Below are positions 29,503 through 64,000 of a DNA stretch of 64,000 bases, in pieces (position 1 is the first letter of the stretch; each line of letters opens with the position of its first letter). The stretch is from positions 49,311-113,310 of the forward strand of contig NMRA01000321.1 of NCBI GenBank assembly GCA_002633005.1, given 5' to 3'. Both the position numbers and the translations under genes were made by a program. The notes below the pieces were generated by a model. It ran no database searches and was not told where the DNA came from. It worked only from the letters and a program-made list of their open reading frames with translations. This DNA comes from Phoronis australis. Taxonomy: Eukaryota; Animalia; Phoronida.

Positions 29503-31415
29503 CTCTTTGGGATCGTGACGGACTTATTCCCAACTGCTGCTCATTCAAAGCCTAATCAAACGTGTTTAAAACAAACAGAATTTATTATGGACTTTTCAAA
29601 ATACGTTTGGTATGGTGCATTGACCCACAAAATAGCCGCCGCAATTGAACGGCACTGAATTACAGGTAACAAACGCAAATACGTACGGGACTCTAATTTA
29701 CGAAATTTTAGTGTAGTCTCCCGATTAATGAAACTCTTCCTCTGTTCTAAAGGGGTGGGAATGTTGCATTTCACTGAGATATCTGGTATAATCTAGGTAT
29801 CAGAATAGATAAAAACTGTATTTTCCATAAACAATGAGATTTGTTTATGTACATTATTTATTTTTTGATGATGGTCGATTTATGTCTTAGCAACTTTTTT
29901 GTATTAAATATGGCTTTTCTCCAACATTTACCCATTTCCAGAGTCTAATAGGACCATATGTGAATATTTTAAAGTTAGGACAAATTCTGTTTTCACGATT
30001 TCCCTCCCACGCCGTGCTCCCCTGTTTTCTCGGACATTCTGTCTTATTCAAATCTATAATCGATTAGTAACCAAGTTCGACAAAAACCCTGAAAAATTTG
30101 AAAGTGGGAGCAGGCAATAAATATCACGACAACTAGAGATTGGTAAAAATGAGTTAAAGGATCTTCATTTGTACTGGTCTTATGGTATTGTACAATCTTT
30201 TTGGATGTCGTTTAGGGAACGGATTTGTCAAAAAACTGGTCAAGCTTTTGAACTAACGCCCATAGATATTTTTAGGATAATTTGATGGACCAAAAACATT
30301 TAATTTAATAATTTTTCTTGGGAAACTACATATATATATACGAAAGAAGACTGAAAAACCTTCAACGAAATGTAGAAGTTGCCAAAACGAAAATTATTAA
30401 TTACTATGATGTACAAAAATATATATTTAAAAAATTAAAATTACAAAAATTTTTGGACAGGTGGACCCTTATGGCTAATTTAGTTACCTGATTTTTTCTC
30501 TTTTTGTTATTATCCCCATAGGCGTGTGTTTGTGTGCGCGCGCGCGCGCGTGTGTGTACATGCGTGTGCGTGTGTGTGTAGTCATATTATTAGCAATACT
30601 GCTTATGCCAATAAAACATTTATAATAAAGAGAAGTTATCTAAAAGGCGCAACAACGATATGTAGATCATATTTCAACTTTGGTTGGCACAATCATTGCC
30701 TAAGGTGTGCACAACGCAGGATAATATTTGAATTTCCTGAGAATATGTACGTGTGGCATGGGCATCAGCATGAAACGGAATGCAGTATTTCAACGTTATC
30801 TTGCCTGTTCTGGATTTTCTCAGGCTATAACGACATTTAAATCAAAACCACATCGTAGCATCTAAATTTTAAAGCTCCCTAGGTACGCGTGGATTCTGAG
30901 AACGTTACGTCCGTCACTAAAAAAATGCCTTTGTCTCAAAAAATCTTTCAAATTTAAACTTTGATTTCATTAATGCGTATTGCGTGTGTGACGTCAACTT
31001 ATTGATGACGTCTAAACTCATACTTATAAATATGGCAATGAAAGTACCCATCAGGGTATTACCTGACTTGATGATCTTTCTAATGGCATATATCAGGGAT
31101 TGTGAACTTTACCAAGTGACGTATAGCGTCACTCACAGAAAACCTTTTGGACATCACAACGGCAATAGTTTCCATCATACTGGACGATTTTGAGGATGGT
31201 GGCTTGAGTGACGAATACTTAGATTCGAGTATCACTATGACTAAAGTGGATGGATTGGACAAATCAAAACGGTTCACTATGAATACATTGAAGACATTCT
31301 CGACGACATCACAGAAACACCACACGAGCATAAGGACAGTACAGCCGCTACAACCATAAGTTCAGAAAGAAAGCTCAAATCGTATCGTCCAACTACAGGA
31401 AATAGCAAAAGCAAA

Positions 31416-33617
31416 TTGAATCAGAATAATGACTTCATTGAAAACAGTGAAGTTATCAATGAGGTTGGTACTACGCAGCTGCAGGAGAAACGAAAAGAGA
31501 AGAAAGACGGTATATTTACAGGTGAAGGGCTTGGATACAATGATGATGCGATTGTTAAAGAAGACGGTTGTATAGTTGATGCAACCGAGGGTAAAAACGG
31601 ACGCGTTGCCGATGATACCGAAAGAAAGGATAGATACGTTCGCGGTGCAATAAATGGTAATGCTGGACGAGCCATAAACAGCGCGGGTGGCAACAACGGA
31701 CATGAACAGGATGTTTCCAAAGTAAATGACGGAAGCGAAAACGATGCTCATGACGTAAATGCCGAAGACGTGTCTGACGCTCCACATGATGGTGGTCCTA
31801 GACCAGGTGTTATATGTAAAAAACGCTACCATAGGCATACATGTAGGTCTGACACTACATGACAAATGTGATTCTATACATGGAACTCCGTGTGAAAATG
31901 GTGATGCTGAGCAAGATGCCACGTAAGGAAGTGATAATCCTGAGCATGATACTGTGTGTGAAAATGGTAATCCCGACCATAATATTCTGAATAGAAATGA
32001 GGGTCTTGGGTATGATACGTCATATGGAAATGGCGATCCTTACTATGATACTTATGGAAATGGTGACTCAGCGCATGATACTCCGAATGGAAATGGTGGT
32101 TCAGGGCATAATACTCCCTATGAAAATGGTGATCCAGGGGATGATACTCCGTATGGAAATGGTGATTTTGAGCATGATACTTCGTATAGAAATGTTGATT
32201 CTGAGCCTGATACTCCTTATGAAAATGGTGATCCGGGGCATCATGCTCTGTATGAAAATGGTAATCCTGAGCATGATACTATAAATGAAAATGATGGCCC
32301 AGGGAATGATACTACATATAGAAATAGCGATCCTGGCTCTGATACTTATGGGAATGGCGGTCCAGTATGGAAATGGTGATCCTGAGCCTAATGTTCCGGC
32401 CTATGAAAATAGTGAAATACGGGATGATACTCCGTATGGAAATGGTGATCCTGAGCCCAATATTCCGTATGAAAATGGTGATTCAGGACATGATACCTCG
32501 TATGGATATGGTGATCTTGAACATGGTACTCGACATGAAAATAGTGACCCAGGGCATGATACTCGGTATGGAGGTGATGATCCAGGGAATGATACTCAGT
32601 ATAAAAATGGTGATCCTGAACATAATGCTCCGTATGGAAATGGTGATCCAGATCATGATACTCCGTAGGAAAACGGTGATTTTGAGCCTAATACTTCGTA
32701 TGGAAATGGTGATTCTGAGCCAGATACTTTGTATGGAAATGGTGATCCAGGACATGATGCGCCGTATAGAAATGGTGATCCAGGGCAGGATGCTTCGTAT
32801 AGAAATAGGGATCCAGGGCACGATACTGCGTACAGAAACAGTGATACAGGGAATGGTACTGAGCATGGGAATGGTGAGCCCCTACCATGATGTTTCCTGT
32901 GGAAATGGTAATCCAGGGCATGATGCTCCGCAAGAAAATGATGACCGTGGCCCTGAGCATTGTCCACCGTATGAAAATGGTTACTCTGAGCAAGATGTTT
33001 TGTATGAAAACAATGAATCCGAGTATGGTTCTAATTATGAGAATGGTGATTTTGGTCATGCTTTGTATGGTACACTGTGTGGAAGTGCTGCTCTTGACCA
33101 AGATACTCCGTACGAAAATGACGATCTTAGGCATGATAACCCCTGTGAAAATAATGATCAAGCTGGCCATGAAACTCCGTATAAAAATAGTGATTCTGAG
33201 CATGAATCTACGAATGAAAAGTGGAATCCTGAGCATGATACTCTATATGAAGAAGGTGATTATGAGCATGATAATCCCTATAAAAATGTTGAATCTGGTT
33301 ATAATACTCCCCATGCAATTGTTGATCCTATGCATGGAAACGGTTCGTCAGGGCATGATACAAGTGTTGAAATCGGACCCGAAGAATCTCTTGCGAATAA
33401 AGAGCGAGAATCTCGTGGCACAGGCGACAACCATGGACTTGTAACTAACCGTACCAATGGAATCCTTGGAGAAATCATCGATGTATCTTGTGCCAACGAG
33501 GGACGTGTCGCTCATCTTACGGGTGACAGAGGTGGCCGAGTGGGACACTACACTTCTGTCAATAATGAAAGTGCTAAGGCGAGAAAAGAGTGTGCTGGGA
33601 CGATCATGGCCTTCTGA
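31416..33617 (+). pseudogene. Disrupted ORF for an acidic D/N/G/E/H/Y/P-rich protein with ~45 11-aa repeats (YENGDPGHDTP)
   Basis: 33-bp unit TATGAAAATGGTGATCCAGGGCATGATACTCCG over ~31870-33360. In-frame stops at 31924 (TAA) and 32666 (TAG); frameshifts near 31862, 32366 and 32880. A non-repetitive tail ends at TGA 33617. Confidence 0.55.
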
Positions 33618-34176: not shown

Positions 34177-36660
34177 TTTTTTCATGATATTTTAAGTTTA
34201 TTAGATAACCAAGTAAGTGATTACATAACAAAAACAAGTCCTTACAGACAAGTATCGCCGGTCGTAACTAGCTGACTGAGTCACATTTATACACGTTTCA
34301 CACACACGCACAAACGAAACCTGATTATATTGTATACTAAATATTTTGCTGGAATATGGTTATAAAAATTTACCATTTGTTTTCAAAATATTCTAAGCAT
34401 CCATTTTTTGTGAAAATATACTTAAGCTTTTTCAGATAATAAGCCAATTCAATTTTGAAGACTGCGATGGAAGATACCTGGCTCCGCAATCGGCGGGATA
34501 AGATGCGTATTTTTGCTAGACATAAAATAACATTAAGTGACTTGCTCCTCTTCCTACTAAATCCAAATATAACAGTGAAAGCGTCTAGATTTTTGTTACA
34601 GAGTTTCTACAGATGATAGAAACTCGTATATTTTTTGCCAGAAAGTTTTCACGAAAGAACAGTCAAAGAACAAATGAACAATTTCCACTGACCTCGCATG
34701 ACAGAAGCTTCATAGATCAGAATCACTAGCTCCTATTTGTAACAACAGTTTGGTTGTTCCTATTATTCTATGGACAATTCTCATCTGTAGCCATTTTAAA
34801 CGTCATTGACTGGGCTAAAGTCAAAAGCGTTACGTAAGATATCTTGCAACTCAGATTCAGACTTTTCAATAATAAAATCAGCTTCCCAAGTTTGATAAAA
34901 ATTTTGGCCTTTTATATAAATTTTCCAAAGAAGTCTCGTAAAAATCCCGAGTTCTCTTCTTATCACGTGTCATATTTTGTAGCATGATCGCTCTCTTCAT
35001 AGAGATGTTCGTAATGTCCTTTTGATATATTCCTCACGAATATTTTCTAATTCGCGGGTTAGTTAACTCTTCCTCGGCTCCTCAAAAAAATTCTGATGTA
35101 AAATAAAGCTTAAAGTTTCAATACGCCTTTCCATGTCATTTTCTTTAGTACGATTTTGCTTCTTTTTATTGACTGGGAAGGGAATTGTCATTGTTCTTAT
35201 ATTATTCAGCACAACTTTAAATAGAAGTTTATCATTAATTGAAAACTGACAACAATCATTAAATTCAGAACGTTCGGGAAGAGTTACCTTATACTCATTA
35301 ACAGTATTTGCAATGACTTCTTTTACTTTATATATACGTCTTGTCAGACAACAAAGAGTTGTTAAATCGCCAAAATCCAGGTCCTTTTTATAATTGTAAT
35401 ATTTCAATGTTACTCTAATAGCTCAGTGATCAATTCTATATTCAAGTTGGTTTTTGCAGAAACCCCATGGGTTCCTCACAAACTACAAAATAGTGCCACC
35501 TAGCACACTTACGTGTATTTCTCTTAAACCATGTGTAACTTTTTCTTTCAGGATGCCCAACTCTCCAAGGGTCAAACAAATTTAGCCTAGCTTTCAACTC
35601 CTTAACTTTTTTATTGGACGAAGGATTGTTGTTGCACTTATAGTTACAAAAGTCTAAATCATAATCCTGGATGACGTTCCAATCCCCACAAAGAACCGCA
35701 AACTCTGATGCGTATTCATCGACTTGACTTCTGAGGTTTGAAAAAGATAGGTCACCTTTATTAGGATCATAGATGTTAAAAATAGGTATAGTGAATTTTG
35801 ACTCAACTATCAAATCTATAGCTAATAAATTCCCGGACGAGTCATGTTTGATATTTTGATATTAGAAACACTGTACTGAAAGTTGTTACCAAATAATATA
35901 GTAACTCCTCTAGAATTCCTCGACCCGGGGGAGCAGTAACACTCAGACCCCATTAAAATTTATTTAACCATGTCTATCATTTGTGCTAAAAAGTGGGTAT
36001 CCTGCAAACAATAGATTCTATGATTTTTATTTCTTAAGTAATCAAAAACATCCTTTCGTTTTACTAGGGAGCCCAATCCCCTACAATTTATTGTAAAGTA
36101 ACCATTAACACTTTGGCCGGTGAGAGCGTTCTAAATAACATCAGGGTTGGCGATCGCTTCACAGTATAGGGTCACTGTCTCTGCACTGTTGAATTCATGT
36201 ACCTAATCTCACTCACCATACCAAGACACACACAGCAATAAAACTGATTGCGTGATGCAGGCCTAGGATTGCTCTGAATACCTTGGTATCACAGCATGCC
36301 CCAGTTGAGCTGCTAAACAGAACATAGTTAGACCACACAAAAACAAATATCAGCTGAACAAGTTGCATCTTCCTTGAGCAACGAACTCAGCCGAGAAAAG
36401 CTCCCTGGAGAAAAACAATAATCGAAAAACGAGTTGGACTTCTAATTGACCAAATAAATCTGACGAACGTATGGTACAGAAAGCTAATTAGAATGAGAAA
36501 AAGAACAACAGCCTTACAGGCGACATAAAGTTCTACAGGATAGACTGAAATATACTTTAGTCGCTCAACACTTATGCTCCTTCCATTGTTCATCCCTAGC
36601 CTTTCGGACCTCCAACCCGACCTTGTCCGTTGTTCACGTATTCTTGTCAGCATATTTTGA
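34177..36660 (-). mobile_element. Degenerate L1/Tx1-clade LINE with the RT domain deleted
   Basis: APE endonuclease motifs TINCRGLG..KRKDVFDYLR...IYCLQDTHF, LCGDWNV, DPWR...KSYTW (~35400-36100). C-terminal Cys/His knuckle RIVHRIIGT...FC.....IVHLFFDC.FVKTFW (~34380-34800). AATAAA and A-rich tail at ~34177-34202 on -. Possible ORF1 remnant ~36550-36660. Confidence 0.85.
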
Positions 36661-48464: not shown

Positions 48465-48555
48465 GCATAATGACGTCATCAGAGGATTTCCCAAGCAGTC
48501 ACCTTGACCTTGGTCTTGGGTACGCCATTTTTAGTGAGACCGGTGAGAACTCTTG
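48465..48555 (+). promoter_or_regulatory. MGST3: Probable MGST3 promoter and non-coding exon 1
   Basis: CRE ATGACGTCAT 48470-48479, TGACCTTG 48505-48512, YY1-like CGCCATTTT 48523, donor TTG|GTAAG at 48555. The first coding exon has an acceptor (CCCAG, 49874) 6 nt before the ATG, so an upstream exon is expected. Confidence 0.6.
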
Positions 48556-49880
48556 GTAAGAAATTAATTTAGAGTGGTTGCGTCAGAATTTTTTCCTTTT
48601 AAATCTAAAATGGAATCCACCTGAAAACAGTTTATTGGAATTTACGATAAATGATCGTTTTTTTCTTAAGAAATTTCCGGGTGTGTTGTTTTCAAGAAAC
48701 ATTCAGCTGACTATTGTCGATCACTGGCTCACGCCAATCCCATTGGCATTGGCGCGGCATTGGCCATAGGCATAGGTTAGCCAGGCGGAACCGCGGAGGT
48801 CACGAAAAAATTTCATACCCTCAACTCGGCGTGGAGTTTGCTAGGGGCTGGGTTGAACCAGCTTTGGAGGCCTACTTCAGACGGTGGCACTGTTTAGCTA
48901 GGTTAGGCCACGTCAGGGTCACAGTTTTTTGTGCTCAAAGCCACCTGTGCTCGAACCGTCGAGTTGTCTGGGGAGACGAAAACCGTCGCCAGTACTCAAC
49001 AGCAACGCAAACAAAAGGCATGCAACTCAGGGCACTTCACAATGAGCACGGGAGTAGCAAAATGCTTGGTCACTGACTGTAGCAAATTATTTGCTGCAAT
49101 CGCGTAAATATTCAAGCCACTCAGATTCAACCTATTTTTGTTGTTAAATGAGATGGAACCCTTTATTTGTAATTTTCTTTATGAGCTATCTGACTTAATT
49201 GTTCAGGACACCACGGGACATTGGTGTTTAAACTCAGGTGGTGCAGACCAGTGAAAAATTCATCGACAAATCATCTTCCACAATCATGTGAAATGACCGT
49301 ATCTTGATTACACAATTGTAAGATTTGGATGGTGTAGGAATTTTGAGCTGATGAAATGACAAAACACAAAAAGCGTGTTTTTACCAGCTTTAGAAAATTT
49401 ACCCAATTTCTACATCACCCTCCAAAATAGGAGTTCCTAGTTTGTTCTTCACAATGCACGCCTAGTCTTACATCAGCAAGATTCCCAAACTTCGGTACTA
49501 AACAAGTGAGTGTATGAAGAACTAGACTGATTCATGGTGGCAGATCCTGTAAATTGCTTATTGACTCTTCAATGTAAGAATCATATTACAACTATAGGAA
49601 TTAACTGAGAGTGGCAGTAATTGGATCACTTCTTTTAAAATTCTTAAGATGAAATAAACGGTTATCTAGTTAGGATGGCATCCTGACAGTTACACTGTCC
49701 ACGGATAAGTGGGCTGTTGCCGCTGTTGATCACTCAAAACCCCCAGCACAAGAAGACTTCTCCATTTTCATCATTTTTGAGCAGTGGAGAACCCTGTAAC
49801 CATTTCATTTTCTTGTACAGTTGCAGTACTTGTTGAATGAGAACAACTCACTCCAATGCTTTGTTTTGTCCCAGGGAACA

Positions 49881-50018
49881 ATGGGAGCTGTGTCCAAATT
49901 TGCTGAAGTTTTGCCAGAAGGCTATGGCGGAGTGATCCTTACTGGAGTTGGCAGCGTGTTTGTCAATATGTGGCTTGCCATCAATGTGGGCAAAGCCAGG
50001 AGGCAGCATGAGGTCAAG
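49881..50018 (+). CDS. MGST3: Microsomal glutathione S-transferase 3 (MAPEG), coding exon 1
   Basis: MGAVSKFAEVLPEGYGGVILTGVGSVFVNMWLAINVGKARRQHEVK; GTAAGT donor. Confidence 0.95.
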
Positions 50019-50704: not shown

Positions 50705-50769
50705 CTGCCCATTATGTATCACCCTACCAACATGGAGTTCAACTGTATCCAGAGGGCTCATCAGAACTA
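50705..50769 (+). CDS. MGST3: MGST3 coding exon 2
   Basis: LPIMYHPTNMEFNCIQRAHQN carries the MAPEG FNC.QRAHQN signature; TTCCAG/GTACGT ends. Confidence 0.96.
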
Positions 50770-53849: not shown

Positions 53850-53907
53850 CCTGGAGACCTACCCACAATTCCTTATGCTGTTGTTCATTGGTGGCCTTCA
53901 GTATCCT
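53850..53907 (+). CDS. MGST3: MGST3 coding exon 3
   Basis: (Y)LETYPQFLMLLFIGGLQYP; TTTTAG/GTGAGT ends; phases match. Confidence 0.95.
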
Positions 53908-54758: not shown

Positions 54759-55885
54759 AGTAAGTATTTAAATATGAGTGAAATTTTGCAATGTAGTTGT
54801 AATTTTTTGTTACGAAAGCATGGTTCACAGTACAAGCGCATCTCTGGGCTCCACAAATTTGTTCAAGATCTTCCCCCATAACTAAAACAAGCTGTTGTCC
54901 CAGGCTGCTAAGTTAATTAACAATCATTATAACAATCTTAATTTAAATCATGCAATTTTTCATTTTTTAAACATCTCATTTGAAATTCACTCATTTTCCA
55001 GTCCTGATGTGACCTTGGGCACAAACTTTGAACTCTTCTCATACTAATTACAAACATTAGACATGCCGATGTATTTGATGTTTAAAGTTAGCATCAGATA
55101 TCCACTTTAAAAACATATCCACTGATAATCAGAAGTTACACAGATATAGGATTACGACAGTTCAACATATGTGTACTATGTTAACAACAAATTTTCATTC
55201 AAGCAGTAGGAGATAAATATAAAGCAACTGACACGAAAACACACAGAGGTTTTGAAAACATACAGAGAGGTGTGAAAAACTATTACTAGTAGAGGCAATG
55301 ATGGATGTTCCGAGTCCTTCTAGGAGTAAACAAATGTTATTCATATGTTTTTGTTTTTTGTGTTTTCGAAAGAATATGAGGCAGCTGTTACGTAATGTGC
55401 ATATACTAGAGCATCATTGTATCTTTCCGAGTGTATGAGTCGACTCTTAGAAAGCTTGACTCCACAGACGGTAGTGTAATGTTCAATACCAGTTGCTCAG
55501 TTACGATGATAGTTATAAACGACTTCTGGTTGATTTATTTTGCAGAACTTAGTCATTTGTGAAGCAATCGTGGCACTGACCAATTTTTCTTTTGATCTTG
55601 TATTTTGCTCTATAGCTTTCGGTACAATACTGGGCTGTATTTCGAAGATCCTACACACTCCCGAAGCACTAGAAACTAGTGAATTCTGTCCCATAATGCA
55701 ACATCCCAACGTCACCAAGCAATCGCGTCATTCGCTGCTATTAAGGCCACGAGCATACTTGCCATTCACTTGTGTGATTTTGGGTGATCTTGCTTTTTTG
55801 CCAGCCTCTGGCAACTATGGAATGCATCCGTGTGTTCCAGTAATCAAATGCTTATCACTAGTTCTAACTGGTTACTTTCTTACAG

Positions 55886-55958
55886 CGTACTGCCACTGCA
55901 GCTGGACTGGTTTACCTCATTGGTCGAATCATGTACGCCAGGGGTTACTACACTGGTG
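55886..55958 (+). CDS. MGST3: MGST3 coding exon 4 (copy 1)
   Basis: RTATAAGLVYLIGRIMYARGYYTG + G (phase 1); TTACAG/GTAAGT ends; 73 nt. Confidence 0.93.
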
Positions 55959-57127
55959 GTAAGTCCATGCTTCTATTGTGGACCAAAAATACTTCAAACT
56001 GGTATTTTAAATGCAATTTCCTTTATTGCGAGATACCGTCATTTTTGTGAGTATTTTCTTACTAGTAATGTGATTGGTACTGAAATGTCTGTCTCTAATG
56101 AACTGTTAATTTGCAAGTGTTAGTAAATACAACTGAATATATTTTGCGTCATACAATAGAGNNNNNNNNNNNNNNNNNNNNNNNNNNNNNNNNNNNNNNN
56201 NNNNNNNNNNNNNNNNNNNNNNNNNNNNNNNNNNNNNNNNNNNNNNNNNNNNNNNNNNNNNNNNNNNNNNNNNNNNNNNNNNNNNNNNNNNNNNNNNNAG
56301 ACATGCCGATGTATTTGATGTTTAAAGTTAGCATCAGATATCCACTTTAAAAACATATCCACTGATAATCAGAAGTTACACAGTTATAGGATTACGACAG
56401 TTCAACATATGTGTACTATGTTAACAACAAATTTTCATTCAAGCAGTAGGAGATAAATATAAAGCAACTGACACGAAAACACACAGAGAGGTTTTGAAAA
56501 CATACAGAGAGGTGTGAAAAACTATTACTAGTAGAGGCAATGATGGATGTTCCGAGTCCTTCCAGGAATAAACAAATGTTATTCATATGTTTTTGTTTTT
56601 TGTGTTTTCGAAAGAATATGAGGCAGCTGTTACGTAATGTGCGTATACTAGAGCATCATTGTATCTTTCCGAGTGTATGAGTCGACTCTTAGAAAGCTTG
56701 ACTCCACAGACGGTAGTGTAATGTTCAATACCAGTTGCTTAGTTACGATGATAGTTATAAACGACTTCTGGTTGATTTATTTTGCAGAACTTAGTCATTT
56801 GTGAAGCAATCGTTGCACTGACCAATTTTTCTTTTGATCTTGTATTTTGCTCTATAGCTTTCGGTACAATACTGGGCTGTATTTCGAAGATCCTACACAC
56901 TCCCGAAGCACTAGAAACTAGTGAATTCTGTCCCATAATGCAACATCCCAACCTCACCAAGCAATCGCGTCATTCGCTGCTATTAAGGCCACGAGCATAC
57001 TTGCCATTCACTTGTGTGATTTTGGGTGATCTTGCTTTTTTGCCAGCCTCTGGCAACTATGGAATGCATCCGTGTGTTCCAGTAATCAAATGCTTATCAC
57101 TAGTTCTAACTGGTTACTTTCTTACAG

Positions 57128-57200
57128 CGTACTGCCACTGCAGCTGGACTGGTTTACCTCATTGGTCGAATCATGTACGCCAGGGGTTACTACACTGGTG
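57128..57200 (+). CDS. MGST3: MGST3 coding exon 4 (identical copy 2, likely the other haplotype)
   Basis: Identical to 55886-55958 and inside the gap-flanking duplication. Confidence 0.75.
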
Positions 57201-57842
57201 GTAAGTCCATGCTTCTATTGTGGACCAAAAATACTTCAAACTGGTATTTTAAATGCAATTTCCTTTATTGCGAGATACCGTCATTTTTGTGAGTATTTTC
57301 TTACTAGTAATGTGATTGGTACTGAAATGTCTGTCTCTAATGAACTGTTAATTTGCAAGTGTTAGTAAATACAACTGAATATATTTTGCGTCATACAATA
57401 GAGAACGGTCAAGGACTTTACATGAACTGCTCATGGAACCAAAATAGGAGGGTTCAGTGATATTCTCTTCACTTAGCCAAACCTACAGATCCAGGTTTAT
57501 TATCTAATTCGCAGTAACCTGCCCTTGCAGCCAGCTTGGACATCTCACTAATCCAAGCTTGCAGCCTAAGGTTCAGCAATATCTTCCTCGCAGAATTTTT
57601 TCACCTTATTCAGTTTGCATCTTATACTCCTTTCGACCTGATGCCTGCTTATGTTGAACGCTTAATTGAGCCCTGCCGTGTGTTCACTTTCAACACTTCC
57701 TCGACGTTAGCATAGTATGAAGCTATGGCCACCAACTGCACTGTAGTTATGTGTTACTGCTCTGTTACCGAAGAAGGTTTGAATGAAATGACCACATGGG
57801 AATGCTGACGTTCTGGTTAAAACAGTTTGTCATTTTCCGTAG

Positions 57843-57967
57843 TTCCCGAGAGGAGTGAGAAAGGCGCTCTTCCTGCTATAGGCGCCGAGTTAATTCTGTT
57901 GGCGTGCTCCCTAGCCTTCGTCTACAGGTCATTCTATCAGCAAACCATTCGGGGACTTTTCTTATAA
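57843..57967 (+). CDS. MGST3: MGST3 alternative terminal exon A
   Basis: TTTGTCATTTTCCGTAG acceptor, phase 1: (V)PERSEKGALPAIGAELILLACSLAFVYRSFYQQTIRGLFL*; AATAAA at 58024. Gives 152 aa. Confidence 0.75.
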
Positions 57968-58412
57968 TTTCTTAGTAAGTATTAGACATACACCCTCTGG
58001 TGGTAGATGTTAACTAATTGATCAATAAACGAGAACAAAGCGGTCAGCGTTCCACTTGATTTCTGCTTTTAGTTACCCAAATGGCTTTGCTCGCCCGAGC
58101 AGTTGTGTCTCTCTTTTGTGTCTTTTCTCTTGCACGCACCACTTCCTTGCCCGTTTGGATGCCTGGTTACATGATCATAGTTGGAACTAGTTGACTGTTC
58201 CAACTGTATTCTTTCAAAATTGGTCGTTTTAGAATTGAGCTAGCATCCCTCCATCCTTCGTCCACCTCGTTTGTGACATTTATTGATGGTTCTGTTCCAC
58301 CTGCATGCACCGCTTCCTCCACCATTGTCCAACTTGTATCCTCCCCATCACGTGATCTCCATTGGGACTATTTGATGGATCGTGCATTTTCATTCAAGCC
58401 TGGTCATTTCAG

Positions 58413-58558
58413 ATCCGAGTAAGCGTCGCCGTGGCTCACTGTTTCACATTCCTGAAATTATTCTCTTGGGATGTACTCTCAGCTTCATGTGGAGAAACCA
58501 CTCCCACCTGAGACCTCGTCGTTTTGGCCGCTGGCACTGTAAGTACCACACGGCATGA
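58413..58558 (+). CDS. MGST3: MGST3 alternative terminal exon B (closest to canonical)
   Basis: GGTCATTTCAG acceptor, phase 1: (D)PSKRRRGSLFHIPEIILLGCTLSFMWRNHSHLRPRRFGRWHCKYHTA*; matches the EPSKRSRGAL of MGST3. Gives 159 aa. Confidence 0.85.
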
Positions 58559-60496
58559 CTTCAAAGTCTCGTTGACGGTTATCTAGCATTTGGTGGAGCT
58601 TGTGCTAGAGGGATGAGTTTCAGGTTCATTTCTTTTCATTCACAGTTAGGATGTCACAGTGTATGGCAGTCTGAAAGTGACACTCAGTGAGAAGTGTTTT
58701 TTAGAGATCAGCCCCAAAACAGGTTTGAATTCATGACCGCTGCCGTCTTAGTCCGTTGGTTGGATTTCAGCAAATGACTGGCTGCCAACAATGAGCATTT
58801 GTAATTTGTAATAGTCACAGAAACAACGAAATTTGTGTTGTTTCACAGCTGTGGTCAAAGCCAATAACTTCAAGAGTCTATACCATCCATTATCATAAAA
58901 TTTGTTTGTTATCCCTAAATCCTGTGTTTGTCCCTTTAATGCATGTGCTTGGATTCGTGTCTACTGGTTGGTTGTTCTGAGGAGTGACTTGATGGTGCCT
59001 TTTGATGTTGAATATGTATTATGTGTTGTGCTAAGTGGACCGTTGTTGTTCAAGGTTGCTTTCAGGAATATTTTTCTACCTTCTCATGATTTTTAAATCC
59101 TATTTATTTATACTTTTAACGTGGGTAGCCTCATCAGTTCGGAGCACTGCTTTCCACTAGGGTCCTCAACTCATTGACACCTCATTCACTCACTTCTCAT
59201 ACTCTCATGTTAAGACTGACCGCAATGGTGCAAGAGACCAATAGTCTTCCAGTGCTTGAACTCTGACCTTACAGATGAGAATCCGCAGTCCAAAAAAATT
59301 ATTCATGGCTTGGTTTTCCAGTGGGTTTTTATTGAGTTAATTCATGTCATTAAAAGACCTTTTGTTTGTCATATTTGAGAGATGTATACAAGACTTCAAC
59401 TGTCCTTGCAAAAAAGACTGAAGCATGGATAGTGTACTATCCAAAATGATTACCAGTACCAGATTTCTCCCAGTCTCTGAAAACCAAATATATGCACAAC
59501 GACTGGACCGTGTACACAGTGTCCCAAAGTGTCTGAATAAATTCTAAGGGTTTAATGACTACGAATAGTGTTTTTTTCTTATTCTTGAAGTTTTAGGTTT
59601 GCAGTCCACGGAAGTGGAAAAAGACCTCCACAGTTGACTCATACGTCAGAGAACAGAAATTTTCCAGTTTTATCACCTAATGCAAAACCTTGTGCATCTC
59701 CTGTAGAGATATTTAGGATTTTTCAACAAACCTGATGCACCCAGATGGAAAATAATTTATGAACCATATTATGTGTTTTCTGCTGTAGAAATTGTGTTTA
59801 TTTTGAACAAATAATTGGGTGAGAAGTACTCGTGCGGAGATTCAGTTGTACAGAATCTGAAAAAATCCATTGGTTATTTCTCAGCAGTGACATTTCACCA
59901 ACTTCTGTGCATTACAAAAATCTCAATTAGTTCTCAATAAAACCAATTCATCGCATTCATATTTCAGACTGTTTTTGTTGGGACATCCTATATACCATTG
60001 ACGTTAACTCTGGTAATTCCGTGGGATACATGAAAAAAGTTGTCCATTTTTTCAAAGTTAGTCTGGCTTCTTTGCAAATAAAAACCTCAGACAATCAAAC
60101 AAAAAATAACAAAATGACATCGATTTGGCAGGTTTTTTATTGTTTTACAAATACTCAGTTTTTGCCTTAAGCCCTGCCATAAGGTTAATATTCCTAGTGA
60201 ACGCATACAAGAGGGTAGTCATAACCTGGGGAGAGGGGTGACATTGCTGAAAAAACACAGCATGCAGATTTTCAAGGAGTTACTTCTAAGGCCACACTTC
60301 ATTTCCCAGATGGAGTACCTCTTAGTTCACCAAGTCTTGTACTTGGCTCTCCTTAAAAAAGCATAACTAAAGAGCGCTACCTTCACCCTTCTACACTTTG
60401 CAACGAGTGGTCATCATCACCAATTTCTGGACAAGACTAGACATATTGCAGACGAGTGCAGCATTTCATCGACACCCAACTAATTGTCTCTTGCAG

Positions 60497-60624
60497 AGCC
60501 GTCAAACAGAGCGAATCCATTCTATGTGAGCATGTGGGCCATGAATACCCTTGCAGCCTGTGCCGTTGGTCTGGTCTATAGAAACTTCTGTCCATACCAC
60601 CTCTTTGGCTGGGGACACCATTGA
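60497..60624 (+). CDS. MGST3: MGST3 alternative terminal exon C
   Basis: CTAAT branch point and TGTCTCTTGCAG acceptor, phase 1: (E)PSNRANPFYVSMWAMNTLAACAVGLVYRNFCPYHLFGWGHH*. Gives 153 aa. Confidence 0.72.
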
Positions 60625-62996
60625 ATACTGCCATCACGAGAAATCAACTGTATCATAATCTTTGGAATAATGTACACTGTATTCAGTAGCTGGATGAATG
60701 ATTGAATGGTTAATTGTTGCCAAGTCTACTAGTAAGGTGGGCAACCTTCCTTCCCGAGACAGTGCACAGACGTTCTCACTAACAGCGATCTTTTGTCGTA
60801 GTCTTGTCTCTCAAGAGCTGTATTCTGTTGTCATGCACTGCAATTCTGTTCGTACAAACACATTTTTTTCGCAAACTGCATCTGTGCCGTTATAGTCTAG
60901 ACAGATAGGTAATGGTTGGATATAATGCGCCCGAATTTTGAGAACCAGTTTTCTCCACTGAATAACGGGCATCAAACTGGTTCTCTAAATATGGGCACAT
61001 AATATTCGACTATTGCCGACAGATCTGAGGTGACATAGGAAGCAGGTGAGACACGGTATGAAGATTACGCAAATCATATCCCATGTCAGAGTTCAAAAAA
61101 TCGGAAACTAAGCGATGGTTATTAAGAGATGGTCGTCTTAATATTTGAATTCGCCATTTGGGCATGAGAAAAAGAAACCCAGCGAGGCAAGAATTGCGTT
61201 CATGAGAAAAGAATGTTGTTGATGAGACTACGTGTGCTGTCTGGGAGTAAGATTGTGCTCCAGACATTCTAGAAAATTATGCAATTTAAGAGCCCAGTAA
61301 GGTGCTGTAAATCATGTGTATTCAGTTTAACCTGGACTTAACCGGATGTATTCAGTGCAACTTAATGTCAACGTAACTGATCTACAGAGAGCCTGGAACA
61401 GAAGGAGTGTTTTAATTCCATGAAGATTTTTGTAAACTTTGGTTTTGTAAACTTTTTTTCTATCATGTCATACTGGTTCTGAGCAGTAAATGAAAATGTG
61501 TCAAAATTTTAAAATGGATTTATTGTCTGATAGCAATGTTCTGTGTGGAAATAAATCTTGCACTGCACAAATTATTGTTTTGTCACTGGCTCTATCAAGT
61601 TCTGCTCGTTAACATTCCTAGTGTCAGCACTGAAATCATGAATGAAAAGTTTTGAAATAGTGATTTGATGCCTTTTACGTACTAAGTTACTATTAAAAAC
61701 ACTTCACTCCCTCTATTGGTAACCGTATTCTGCAAAATAAGACAATTTCAACTTACGAAATGTCATGACATTCAGATCCATCGGAAAACATAATGCACTG
61801 GCAAGCAACAAAGAGTGATGACAATTCAAACATTTAGTGGTTCTTTGTTAGCAGAATTTGTGCAAGATTAATTCAGATTTCACGACAACACAGGACTGCA
61901 TACAACTGACTAGTGAAGTCTTGAATGGAAAGCGATCATCTTCCACGTTGCTCTTAATAAAAATGCACATCCCTAATTTCCCTGTAGACATTGTTCTGTG
62001 TTAATTACTATTGCCTTGGCGAGTATGTACTGTCCGTGAAACAATACGAAGTGATGTCAATAGCCCAACAAAGAGCCAGCATCTTGGTTATTGTATTCAC
62101 CATCATTGAGCAATTGGTGAAAGACAAGAATGCTGGTAACCAGGGATGTGCAATTTAGGTAACATCAAAAACAGTGGCTTTCCCCTTTTAAGAGTATGGT
62201 GGTTTTGTTTTTGGCGCGAAACGCGACCTCCCTGGAACTATTTTTCAATAGCCTAAAACCATACTGAAGGCTTATGCAGTGAAGATTAAATTTCTTCCTT
62301 CCACCGTGACCATTCACCACCAACTGCATTGCATGCCGTATTCAAACGATTAATTGGCGAATTTTAACGTTTTTTACACATTTCAAACCTCCTTGCCACT
62401 TCTTTAAAACTTGGAGGAAATTCGTTTCCAGGCAATACGCTTCTTAACCAATCCTATCAATTTTACATTGAAAGCCAGATTTACCTGACCTTGTCCACAT
62501 TTGACATTTGAGATGGATTGGAAAACCCAGAAGGGCCGAGTTGACGCATACCTAATCTTGAGACGTGCAATTTTAGTTCTAGCGTAACTGAGAAAATTAG
62601 CCAATGAGTGAGTGGACTTGAGGTCGGATTGTTAGTTTGAAGTGTGAAAACTCAACAATTTAAGATGTATTTTGATTAAATTGAATGGGAGACAAGATGG
62701 AGACGATATTAGTGCCTATCCACATAGCCTTGGGAGTTTGATGGGATAGCCCACGATTCAGTTTATTCGAAAATGAGGAAAACCCACCAAAATCATTTCA
62801 AAAACTATGTATACAATATGCAGAAATGAACATGATAATGTCACACGGAAATAGATGACCTTCATATCGAATGAGCATGCTATTTACAGCCACATTATCA
62901 TAAAATTTAAAGGCATTAGTCCTGAAAATACAGGCTACATAGGTGATCATAATTTTTCATTAGATTTTTTACATGAACTCATATCTACCACTATTA

Positions 62997-63647: not shown

Positions 63648-64000
63648 GATCATATCGATATATTCATATCAACCAAGATCATATCGATATATTCATATCA
63701 ACCATGATCATATCGATATATTCATATCAACCATGATCATATCGATATATTCATATCAGCCAAGATCATATCGATATATTCATATCAGCCAAGATCATAT
63801 CGATATATTCATATCAGCCAAGATCATATCGATATATTCATATCAGCCAAGATCATATCGATATATTCATATCAGCCAAGATCATATCGATATATTCATA
63901 TCAGCCAAGATCATATCGATATATTCATATCAGCCAAGATCATATCGATATATTCATATCAGCCAAGATCATATCGATATATTCATATCAGCCAAGATCA
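63648..64000. repeat. 29-bp minisatellite (GATCATATCGATATATTCATATCAGCCAA)n, at least 12 copies, running off the window
   Basis: Directly visible; each unit contains the palindrome ATATCGATAT. Confidence 0.95.

Follow-up and report, generated by a model that had tools for sequence, protein, structure and literature searches.

Three tandem homologous exons at the 3' end of the Phoronis australis MGST3 gene, predicted to swap the fourth transmembrane helix of a membrane glutathione transferase

Tandem duplicated exon substitution, in which homologous exons replace one another, has been recognised as a class of splicing events, and orthologues have often acquired it convergently. C-terminal cases make up 77 of the 236 human events, and three-way sets of 3' exons occur in LAMP2, TPM1 and TPM3 (PMC8373072, PMC9741552). 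The C-terminal swaps published in these two sources operate through alternative poly(A) use, whereas the three MGST3 exons described here (A, B and C) share one poly(A) region. In KRAS, whose exons 4A and 4B are entered as a C-terminal event in the supplement of PMC8373072, inclusion of the upstream paralogue as a cassette brings translation to an end, and the downstream paralogue to which it is joined is left untranslated (PMC5945503).

Exon choice also allows one glutathione transferase (GST) gene to produce several enzymes, as in Drosophila GstO2, GstZ2, GstD11 and GstT3 (PMC4195677), and spliced cytosolic GSTs have been treated repeatedly (PMC4195677, PMC4654499, PMC9540044). The insect cytosolic GSTs have a soluble fold unrelated to that of MGST3. 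Alternatively spliced Anopheles GSTd1 is also a cytosolic GST. Within the MAPEG family there is Drosophila Mgstl, which we take to be an MGST1-like gene. It is listed (FBgn0025814) by gene name only in Table S4 of tandem duplicated exon substitutions in PMC9741552, and its likeness to the Phoronis gene extends as far as that listing; the statement in the preliminary description of this locus that no such case was known for a MAPEG gene was nevertheless too strong. The human event table in the supplement of PMC8373072 contains no MGST, PTGES, LTC4S or ALOX5AP gene, and a literature search of titles and abstract openings, covering few subscription papers, found no description of an exon swap for MGST3.

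Human MGST2 (PDB 6SSS) and LTC4S (PDB 2UUH) have the same four-helix fold; the human table gives no sign that either has more than one TM4 exon, and in both, glutathione is activated by Arg104, where helix 4 begins. Replacement of LTC4S Arg104 by Ala, Ser, Thr or Lys removes 94.3-99.9% of activity; the corresponding Arg is present in MGST3 and absent in FLAP (PMC3003377). MGST2 works at only one of its three sites at a time, and its Ala101-Arg104 stretch changes conformation (PMC7979937). TM4 residues line the cleft of mouse LTC4S (PMC4014545) and gate inhibitor access to the cleft of mPGES-1 (PMC2937957).

The Phoronis australis MGST3 gene lies on the + strand of the window, by which is meant the whole 64,000-nucleotide stretch of DNA that was analysed. 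RNA evidence comes from three stranded raw-read runs of one study (X2, X3 and X4; 18-19% of each) and one contig run, with a joint called from at least three reads from two starts. The constant part of the gene has four coding exons, with 334 coding bases ending in phase 1 as initially described, and one of these is doubled in the assembly:

49875 to 50018, + strand: first coding exon (coding from the ATG at 49881), TM1; GT donor and reading frame; fragment match to Pfam MAPEG, 16.3 bits.
50705 to 50769, + strand: second coding exon, with the QRAHQN motif; AG/GT borders, frame and alignment with homologues.
53850 to 53907, + strand: third coding exon; AG/GT borders and read ends.
57128 to 57200, + strand: exon 4, TM3, the last constant exon, with a phase 1 donor; fragment match to Pfam MAPEG, 19.8 bits; joints to B and C.
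55059 to 56161, + strand: first copy of a duplicated 1.1 kb stretch, with an identical exon 4 at 55886-55958 inside; 1096 of 1103 bases identical to 56299-57403.

Homology across the domain places this gene in MGST3 (MAPEG, PF01124). Exon 1 is up to 73% identical to homologues, and 80 of the 111 residues of the constant part are identical in Solemya MGST3, the nearest relatives being the MGST3 proteins of molluscs and other lophotrochozoans. In a tree of the constant region, the sequence falls among lophotrochozoans, the group within them being left without resolution. Exons 1 and 4 match PF01124 only as fragments, under the 23.4-bit cut-off. Exon 1 alone gave no match in a word search, and no protein of the species itself or a close relative was present among 109 matches or the best 120 of 1193. 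By eye, a possible non-coding first exon lies at about 48470-48557 (GT donor at 48556), and an AG acceptor precedes exon 1 at 49873-49874. Both 1.1 kb copies adjoin a 137-base N gap (56162-56298), and the doubled stretch is likely an unmerged assembly overlap. The loose read ends before 57128 match the end of exon 3 (129, 155 and 398 reads; agreement 0.97-1.0), and thus give no sign of two exon 4 copies in one transcript.

Downstream of exon 4, the following features are relevant:

57843 to 57974, + strand: cassette exon A, 132 nt, minor, with TAA at 57965-57967, 7 nt before the GT donor; A-C joint.
58413 to 58538, + strand: cassette exon B, 126 nt, nearest to the usual MGST3 tail; exon 4-B and B-C joints.
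60497 to 61570 (3' end approximate), + strand: terminal exon C, coding to 60624 if joined directly to exon 4; exon 4-C joint.
60908 to 61017, no strand assigned: dispersed repeat able to form a hairpin, within the 3' untranslated portion of C; inverted arms of 44 nt with 80% complementarity.
61550 to 61555, + strand: AATAAA; read starts accumulate at 61500 and 61545, beyond which depth drops to 1-3.

The AG acceptors at 57843, 58413 and 60497 are each followed, as had been noted, by sequence open in the phase of exon 4, for 41, 48 and 42 codons of genomic read-through. Since 73 of the 351 downstream AG sites have at least 30 open codons, an open frame is weak evidence by itself, and homology is the test. 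The homology first claimed for the peptides is borne out: in a peptide shuffle test, A-B outscored all 5000 shuffles and A-C 4999 of 5000, but the B-C pair by itself was not significant (688 of 5000 shuffles reached its score). Pro, Leu, Cys and Arg are common to all three.

A further comparison used an MGST3 profile of 182 full-length homologues, none from the window, taken from 197 unique tails starting with D/E/N/K and then P/A. Over the constant part, B gained 32.2 bits, A 17.6 and C 13.2, against 7.7 for the best of 100 decoy tails (which leave out three same-frame acceptors inside A and C) and 0 for intron read-through. The complete isoforms score 202-221 bits, and all three tails extend the profile through TM4, in line with the original proposal. 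Exon C is the most divergent: it reaches position 134 of 147 on the full-length profile, is inseparable from decoys on a tail-only profile (1.7 bits, rank 8 of 107), lacks a Gly present in 219 of 221 tails and forms the longest branch in the tail tree. As single exons, A, B and C have no Pfam match, and B as a query against solved structures gave no relevant match. No fourth copy was found among the 2164 six-frame segments of the window, a weak negative as the scan also missed C.

As DNA, the three pairs are identical at 36/89, 42/86 and 35/86 positions (40-49%), which indicates that the duplicates are old. Codon positions 1 and 2 are more alike than position 3 in A-C (30/59 vs 6/30; Fisher p 0.004), A-B (33/57 vs 9/29; 0.016) and B-C (28/57 vs 7/29; 0.022). 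A, B and C are old duplicates diverging as coding sequence. The scaffold gap and the doubled exon 4 just upstream might raise the suspicion that the array is an assembly artefact, or a set of remnants of neighbouring paralogous genes. However, the low DNA identity is joined by single reads that bridge exon 4-B, exon 4-C and B-C, which refute an artefact, and a motif scan of the window detected no second set of upstream exons; the probability of such an origin is negligible, and the early reading of the copies as old duplications holds. Variants called from reads occur in C at 60503, 60513, 60516 and 60519, all in the first eight codons, with two changing a residue; none was called in exon B or the helix of C.

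Four joints with GT..AG ends, all on one strand, were present in all three raw-read runs. Reads in X2, X3 and X4 numbered 39, 41 and 162 for exon 4-B; 56, 62 and 163 for exon 4-C; 66, 66 and 202 for B-C (donor after 58538); and 4, 2 and 3, nine in all, for A-C (donor after 57974). All except A-C were also seen in the contig run. Of the proposed junctions, reads confirm 57200 to 58413 and 57200 to 60497; that to 57843 was not found, neither exon 4-A nor A-B joints reaching the threshold of at least three reads from two starts in the four runs. Joints into C come from B (51-55%), exon 4 (44-48%) and A (0.8-3.2%). Because A is minor, the realistic set in these samples is B and C. These two exons replace each other in transcripts by junction reads, and A does so by its downstream joint only. 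Depth over A starts at the exon, and the upstream bin is empty in X3 and X4; this is compatible with use of the A acceptor, short of showing it.

The preliminary description took A, B and C for three alternative last exons, each with its own AATAAA (58024, 59536 and 61550). With 0.92 AATAAA per kb in the window, mere presence of the motif near an exon says little, and only the copy at 61550, likely the shared poly(A) signal, sits at the end of coverage (after about 61525). This end of coverage, together with the A-C and B-C joints, makes A and B internal exons, spliced onward to C, and leaves C as the only supported last exon. Separate poly(A) sites for the three exons could draw on the motifs at 58024 and 59536, and on depth in the X4 bin 57914-58035 that is slightly above what exon A explains. 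However, B-C joints equal or exceed exon 4-B joints in every run, A-C joints are present, and depth is near zero past the A and B donors (about 1 or less past B). This layout is largely refuted in these samples and is very improbable. What is observed is a cassette arrangement of the KRAS 4A/4B type, in which translation stops with an upstream paralogue that is itself joined to the terminal one. As in KRAS, skipping the cassette makes the downstream exon coding. MGST3 departs from KRAS in having two cassettes, in the stop of B, which the splice junction creates, and in what is exchanged: a transmembrane helix that bears a predicted catalytic residue, where KRAS exchanges a membrane-targeting tail. 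With tandem homologous exons in a common phase, the MGST3 gene is a further instance of the described class of duplicated-exon swaps.

Several other features of the window were recorded. The hairpin repeat in C draws in numerous reads that belong to other loci. Reads of all four runs contain, at 61162, a 36-base insertion that is absent from the window. Short complementary stretches occur at 57775-57788, 58388-58401 and 58719-58733, and 59229-59245 is complementary to 60479-60495. Pairings that would loop out A or B, or cover the C acceptor, did not exceed a position null, with 28, 43 and 45 of 116 intron windows as good; one pairing window, picked after the repeat had been seen, reached 5 of 116. 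Long low-complexity open frames with short Asp/Pro/Tyr/Gly-rich repeats occupy 31245-33617, with no Pfam match. On the minus strand, 35442-35861 holds an open frame that resembles a decayed retrotransposon endonuclease, with no Pfam match at E 0.01. Inspection by eye also shows a tandem repeat of roughly 29-base units at about 63650-64000.

The arrangement has consequences for translation. Joined to exon 4, C supplies with its first two bases the rest of a Glu codon; joined to B, it supplies the rest of a TAG stop. C is thus translated in one form only, and is untranslated sequence when A or B precedes it. Proteins with A, B and C have 152, 153 and 153 residues. Earlier estimates of 152 and 153 were correct for A and C, and the 159 residues given for B fall to 153 with the stop made by the B-C junction. 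The three ends, within one residue of each other, fit a constraint on length. Under the general 50-nt rule for nonsense-mediated decay, the A and B stops, 7 nt before the last junction and at it, would escape decay. A transcript containing both A and B, with its stop 133 nt upstream of the last junction, would be degraded, and A and B would in this way be kept exclusive.

The preferred reading, with a probability of about 75%, is that exon 4 is spliced to B or C about equally, that B and, rarely, A are spliced on to C, and that three predicted enzymes are the likely result. If exon 4 also joins A, one gene would give rise to three membrane glutathione transferases of 152-153 residues, predicted to differ in TM4, in the loop with the catalytic arginine and in the C-terminal tail. 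The idea that one gene yields several isoforms by swapping TM4 and the C-terminus thus survives for two abundant forms (B and C), which RNA supports, and the last-exon mechanism attached to it does not.

A protein model of abalone isoform X1 (79 sequences, pLDDT 91.8) has helices at 112-116 and 120-139 (TM4), all past the splice point, and matches the MGST2 and LTC4S folds with TM 0.75-0.80; no solved MGST3 chain was among the structure matches. On the basis of this homologue, and of alignment and hydropathy (2.12 for the helix of A, the highest, 1.44 for B and 1.52 for C), A, B and C are predicted to complete a four-helix form with TM4 from the variable exon. The invariant Arg of the profile aligns with residue 110 of the tagged LTC4S and MGST2 chains, which is Arg104 (a six-residue offset against chain 2pno). 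By sequence, then, the swapped exon appears to hold the Arg104 equivalent, a point that the first reading missed. It is tail position 5, which is Arg in 220 of 228 homologues.

B and C have Arg at position 5, as expected by sequence for a thiolate-activating residue. By comparison with LTC4S, MGST2 and mPGES-1, both would activate glutathione through this residue and present different walls toward the lipophilic substrate. A has Ser in this column and Arg at position 4. In LTC4S and MGST2 the Arg is one residue closer to the GY motif than in MGST3, and the same is true of A, so its Arg at position 4 might serve. On balance, the activity of isoform A is rather more probably lost or altered than kept. 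A functional difference between the isoform enzymes is likely.

It is a serious possibility, if not the favoured one, that only B and C matter, and that A is an old duplicate in decay or splicing noise. This would agree with its small share of joints into C, with the exon 4-A joint that stayed below threshold in all four runs and with Ser in the Arg104 column. However, A keeps both splice sites, a frame open for 152 residues and the most hydrophobic helix of the three. The codon signature of coding constraint is present in both pairs that include A, and could predate recent decay. A further alternative is that C is mainly a shared untranslated end, so that skipping of B produces an inactive or unstable subunit and tunes activity down. 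C is barely recognisable by itself, has lost the conserved Gly, and carries amino acid changes in two of its four coding variants. Nevertheless, Pro2 and Arg5 are retained in C, the match to the full-length profile runs on to position 134 of 147, and the protein is as long as that with B. The variants spare its helix, and it has a six-residue tail motif in common with a Ridgeia protein (best-match shuffle test 13/300). This alternative is unlikely.

Returning to the three predicted enzymes, trimers mixed from B and C would form if both forms share one cell. The ten trimer compositions suggested earlier are arithmetic with no evidence behind them; if TM4 alone varies, there are three pocket types. 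If the swapped part alone varies, trimer make-up would matter only through coupling between sites.

A survey of 228 homologues, with isoforms taken from automatic annotations, suggests that the swap is not confined to Phoronis. In Haliotis asinina, H. rufescens, H. cracherodii and H. rubra, isoforms X1 and X2 have an essentially identical constant part up to the GYY(T/S)G motif, followed by different homologous tails, and each of the two tail types is kept in all four species. Besides X1 and X3, Branchiostoma floridae and its hybrid have a third tail, with 5-6 differences in the first 30 residues; two amphioxus tails are certain and three are probable. In Lineus longissimus, isoforms X2 and X4 differ in the same way, and one further organism has three tails on a common constant part. 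The Haliotis, Branchiostoma and Lineus tails have diverged far less from one another than A, B and C have, and Arg is retained at position 5 in every one. Two candidates were rejected: a Pomacea model, whose read-through tail is non-homologous, and a catfish group, which consists of orthologues from three catfish. Isoforms of Mercenaria (P0184/P0109), Lineus (P0272/P0294) and Pomacea (P0090/P0182) vary at other places, namely around exon 4 (TM3), within the first exon or beyond TM4, and other MGST3 exons may be duplicated or alternatively spliced too. In P0213, from the further organism with three tails, the third tail is one residue shorter ahead of the Arg, and its TM4 is divergent.

A tail tree (49 tails, 38 columns), in which the groups for testing were named after the tree had been seen, groups the amphioxus tails (99/99), the Lineus pair (96/92) and each abalone type across species. 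A single second exon shared by amphioxus, Lineus, abalone and the Phoronis gene was rejected (p-AU 0.004), as was a second such grouping (0.011); by these tail sequences, one origin of the tail exons across phyla is rejected. A and B are sisters (100/86), and C is without a firm place. A monophyletic group of all three (97/85) did not hold, as C moved away once A was removed, and the age of C is therefore not fixed by the tree. Arrangements that were not rejected include a His-x-x-Glu clade (p-AU 0.34), abalone X2 with C (0.29), abalone X1 with X2 (0.11), abalone X1 with A and B (0.16) and C with tubeworms (0.41). Nor do these sequences reject an old mollusc-annelid split into His-x-x-Glu tails and plain tails.

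The natural substrates of MGST3 are poorly defined. The Phoronis isoforms, which combine a constant 111 residues with three different TM4 segments, amount to natural chimeras and would allow a direct test of the role of TM4 and the Arg104 loop in MAPEG specificity. The stop made by the junction is a compact means by which the same terminal exon can serve as coding sequence in one transcript and as untranslated sequence in another. Interest is added by the catalytic residue within the swapped exon, by the fast divergence of C, a major isoform, and by the recurrence across phyla. That the swap recurs in abalones, amphioxus and a nemertean points to selection for diverse pockets among aquatic invertebrates, whose membrane GST repertoire is understated by gene counts and by annotations with one isoform.

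It is tempting to speculate, although the odds are clearly against the full picture, that the Arg/TM4 exon of MGST3 is a repeated target of duplication across animals, with at least three independent origins, and acts as a plug-in module of the active site. One His-x-x-Glu/plain pair may then date to the mollusc-annelid ancestor and lie hidden in one-isoform annotations. Isoform A, carrying a natural Arg-to-Ser change, would be a subunit without catalysis, comparable to FLAP, and would modulate mixed trimers by way of MGST2-type coupling, with one site active at a time; the switch element of MGST2 sits in the same exon.
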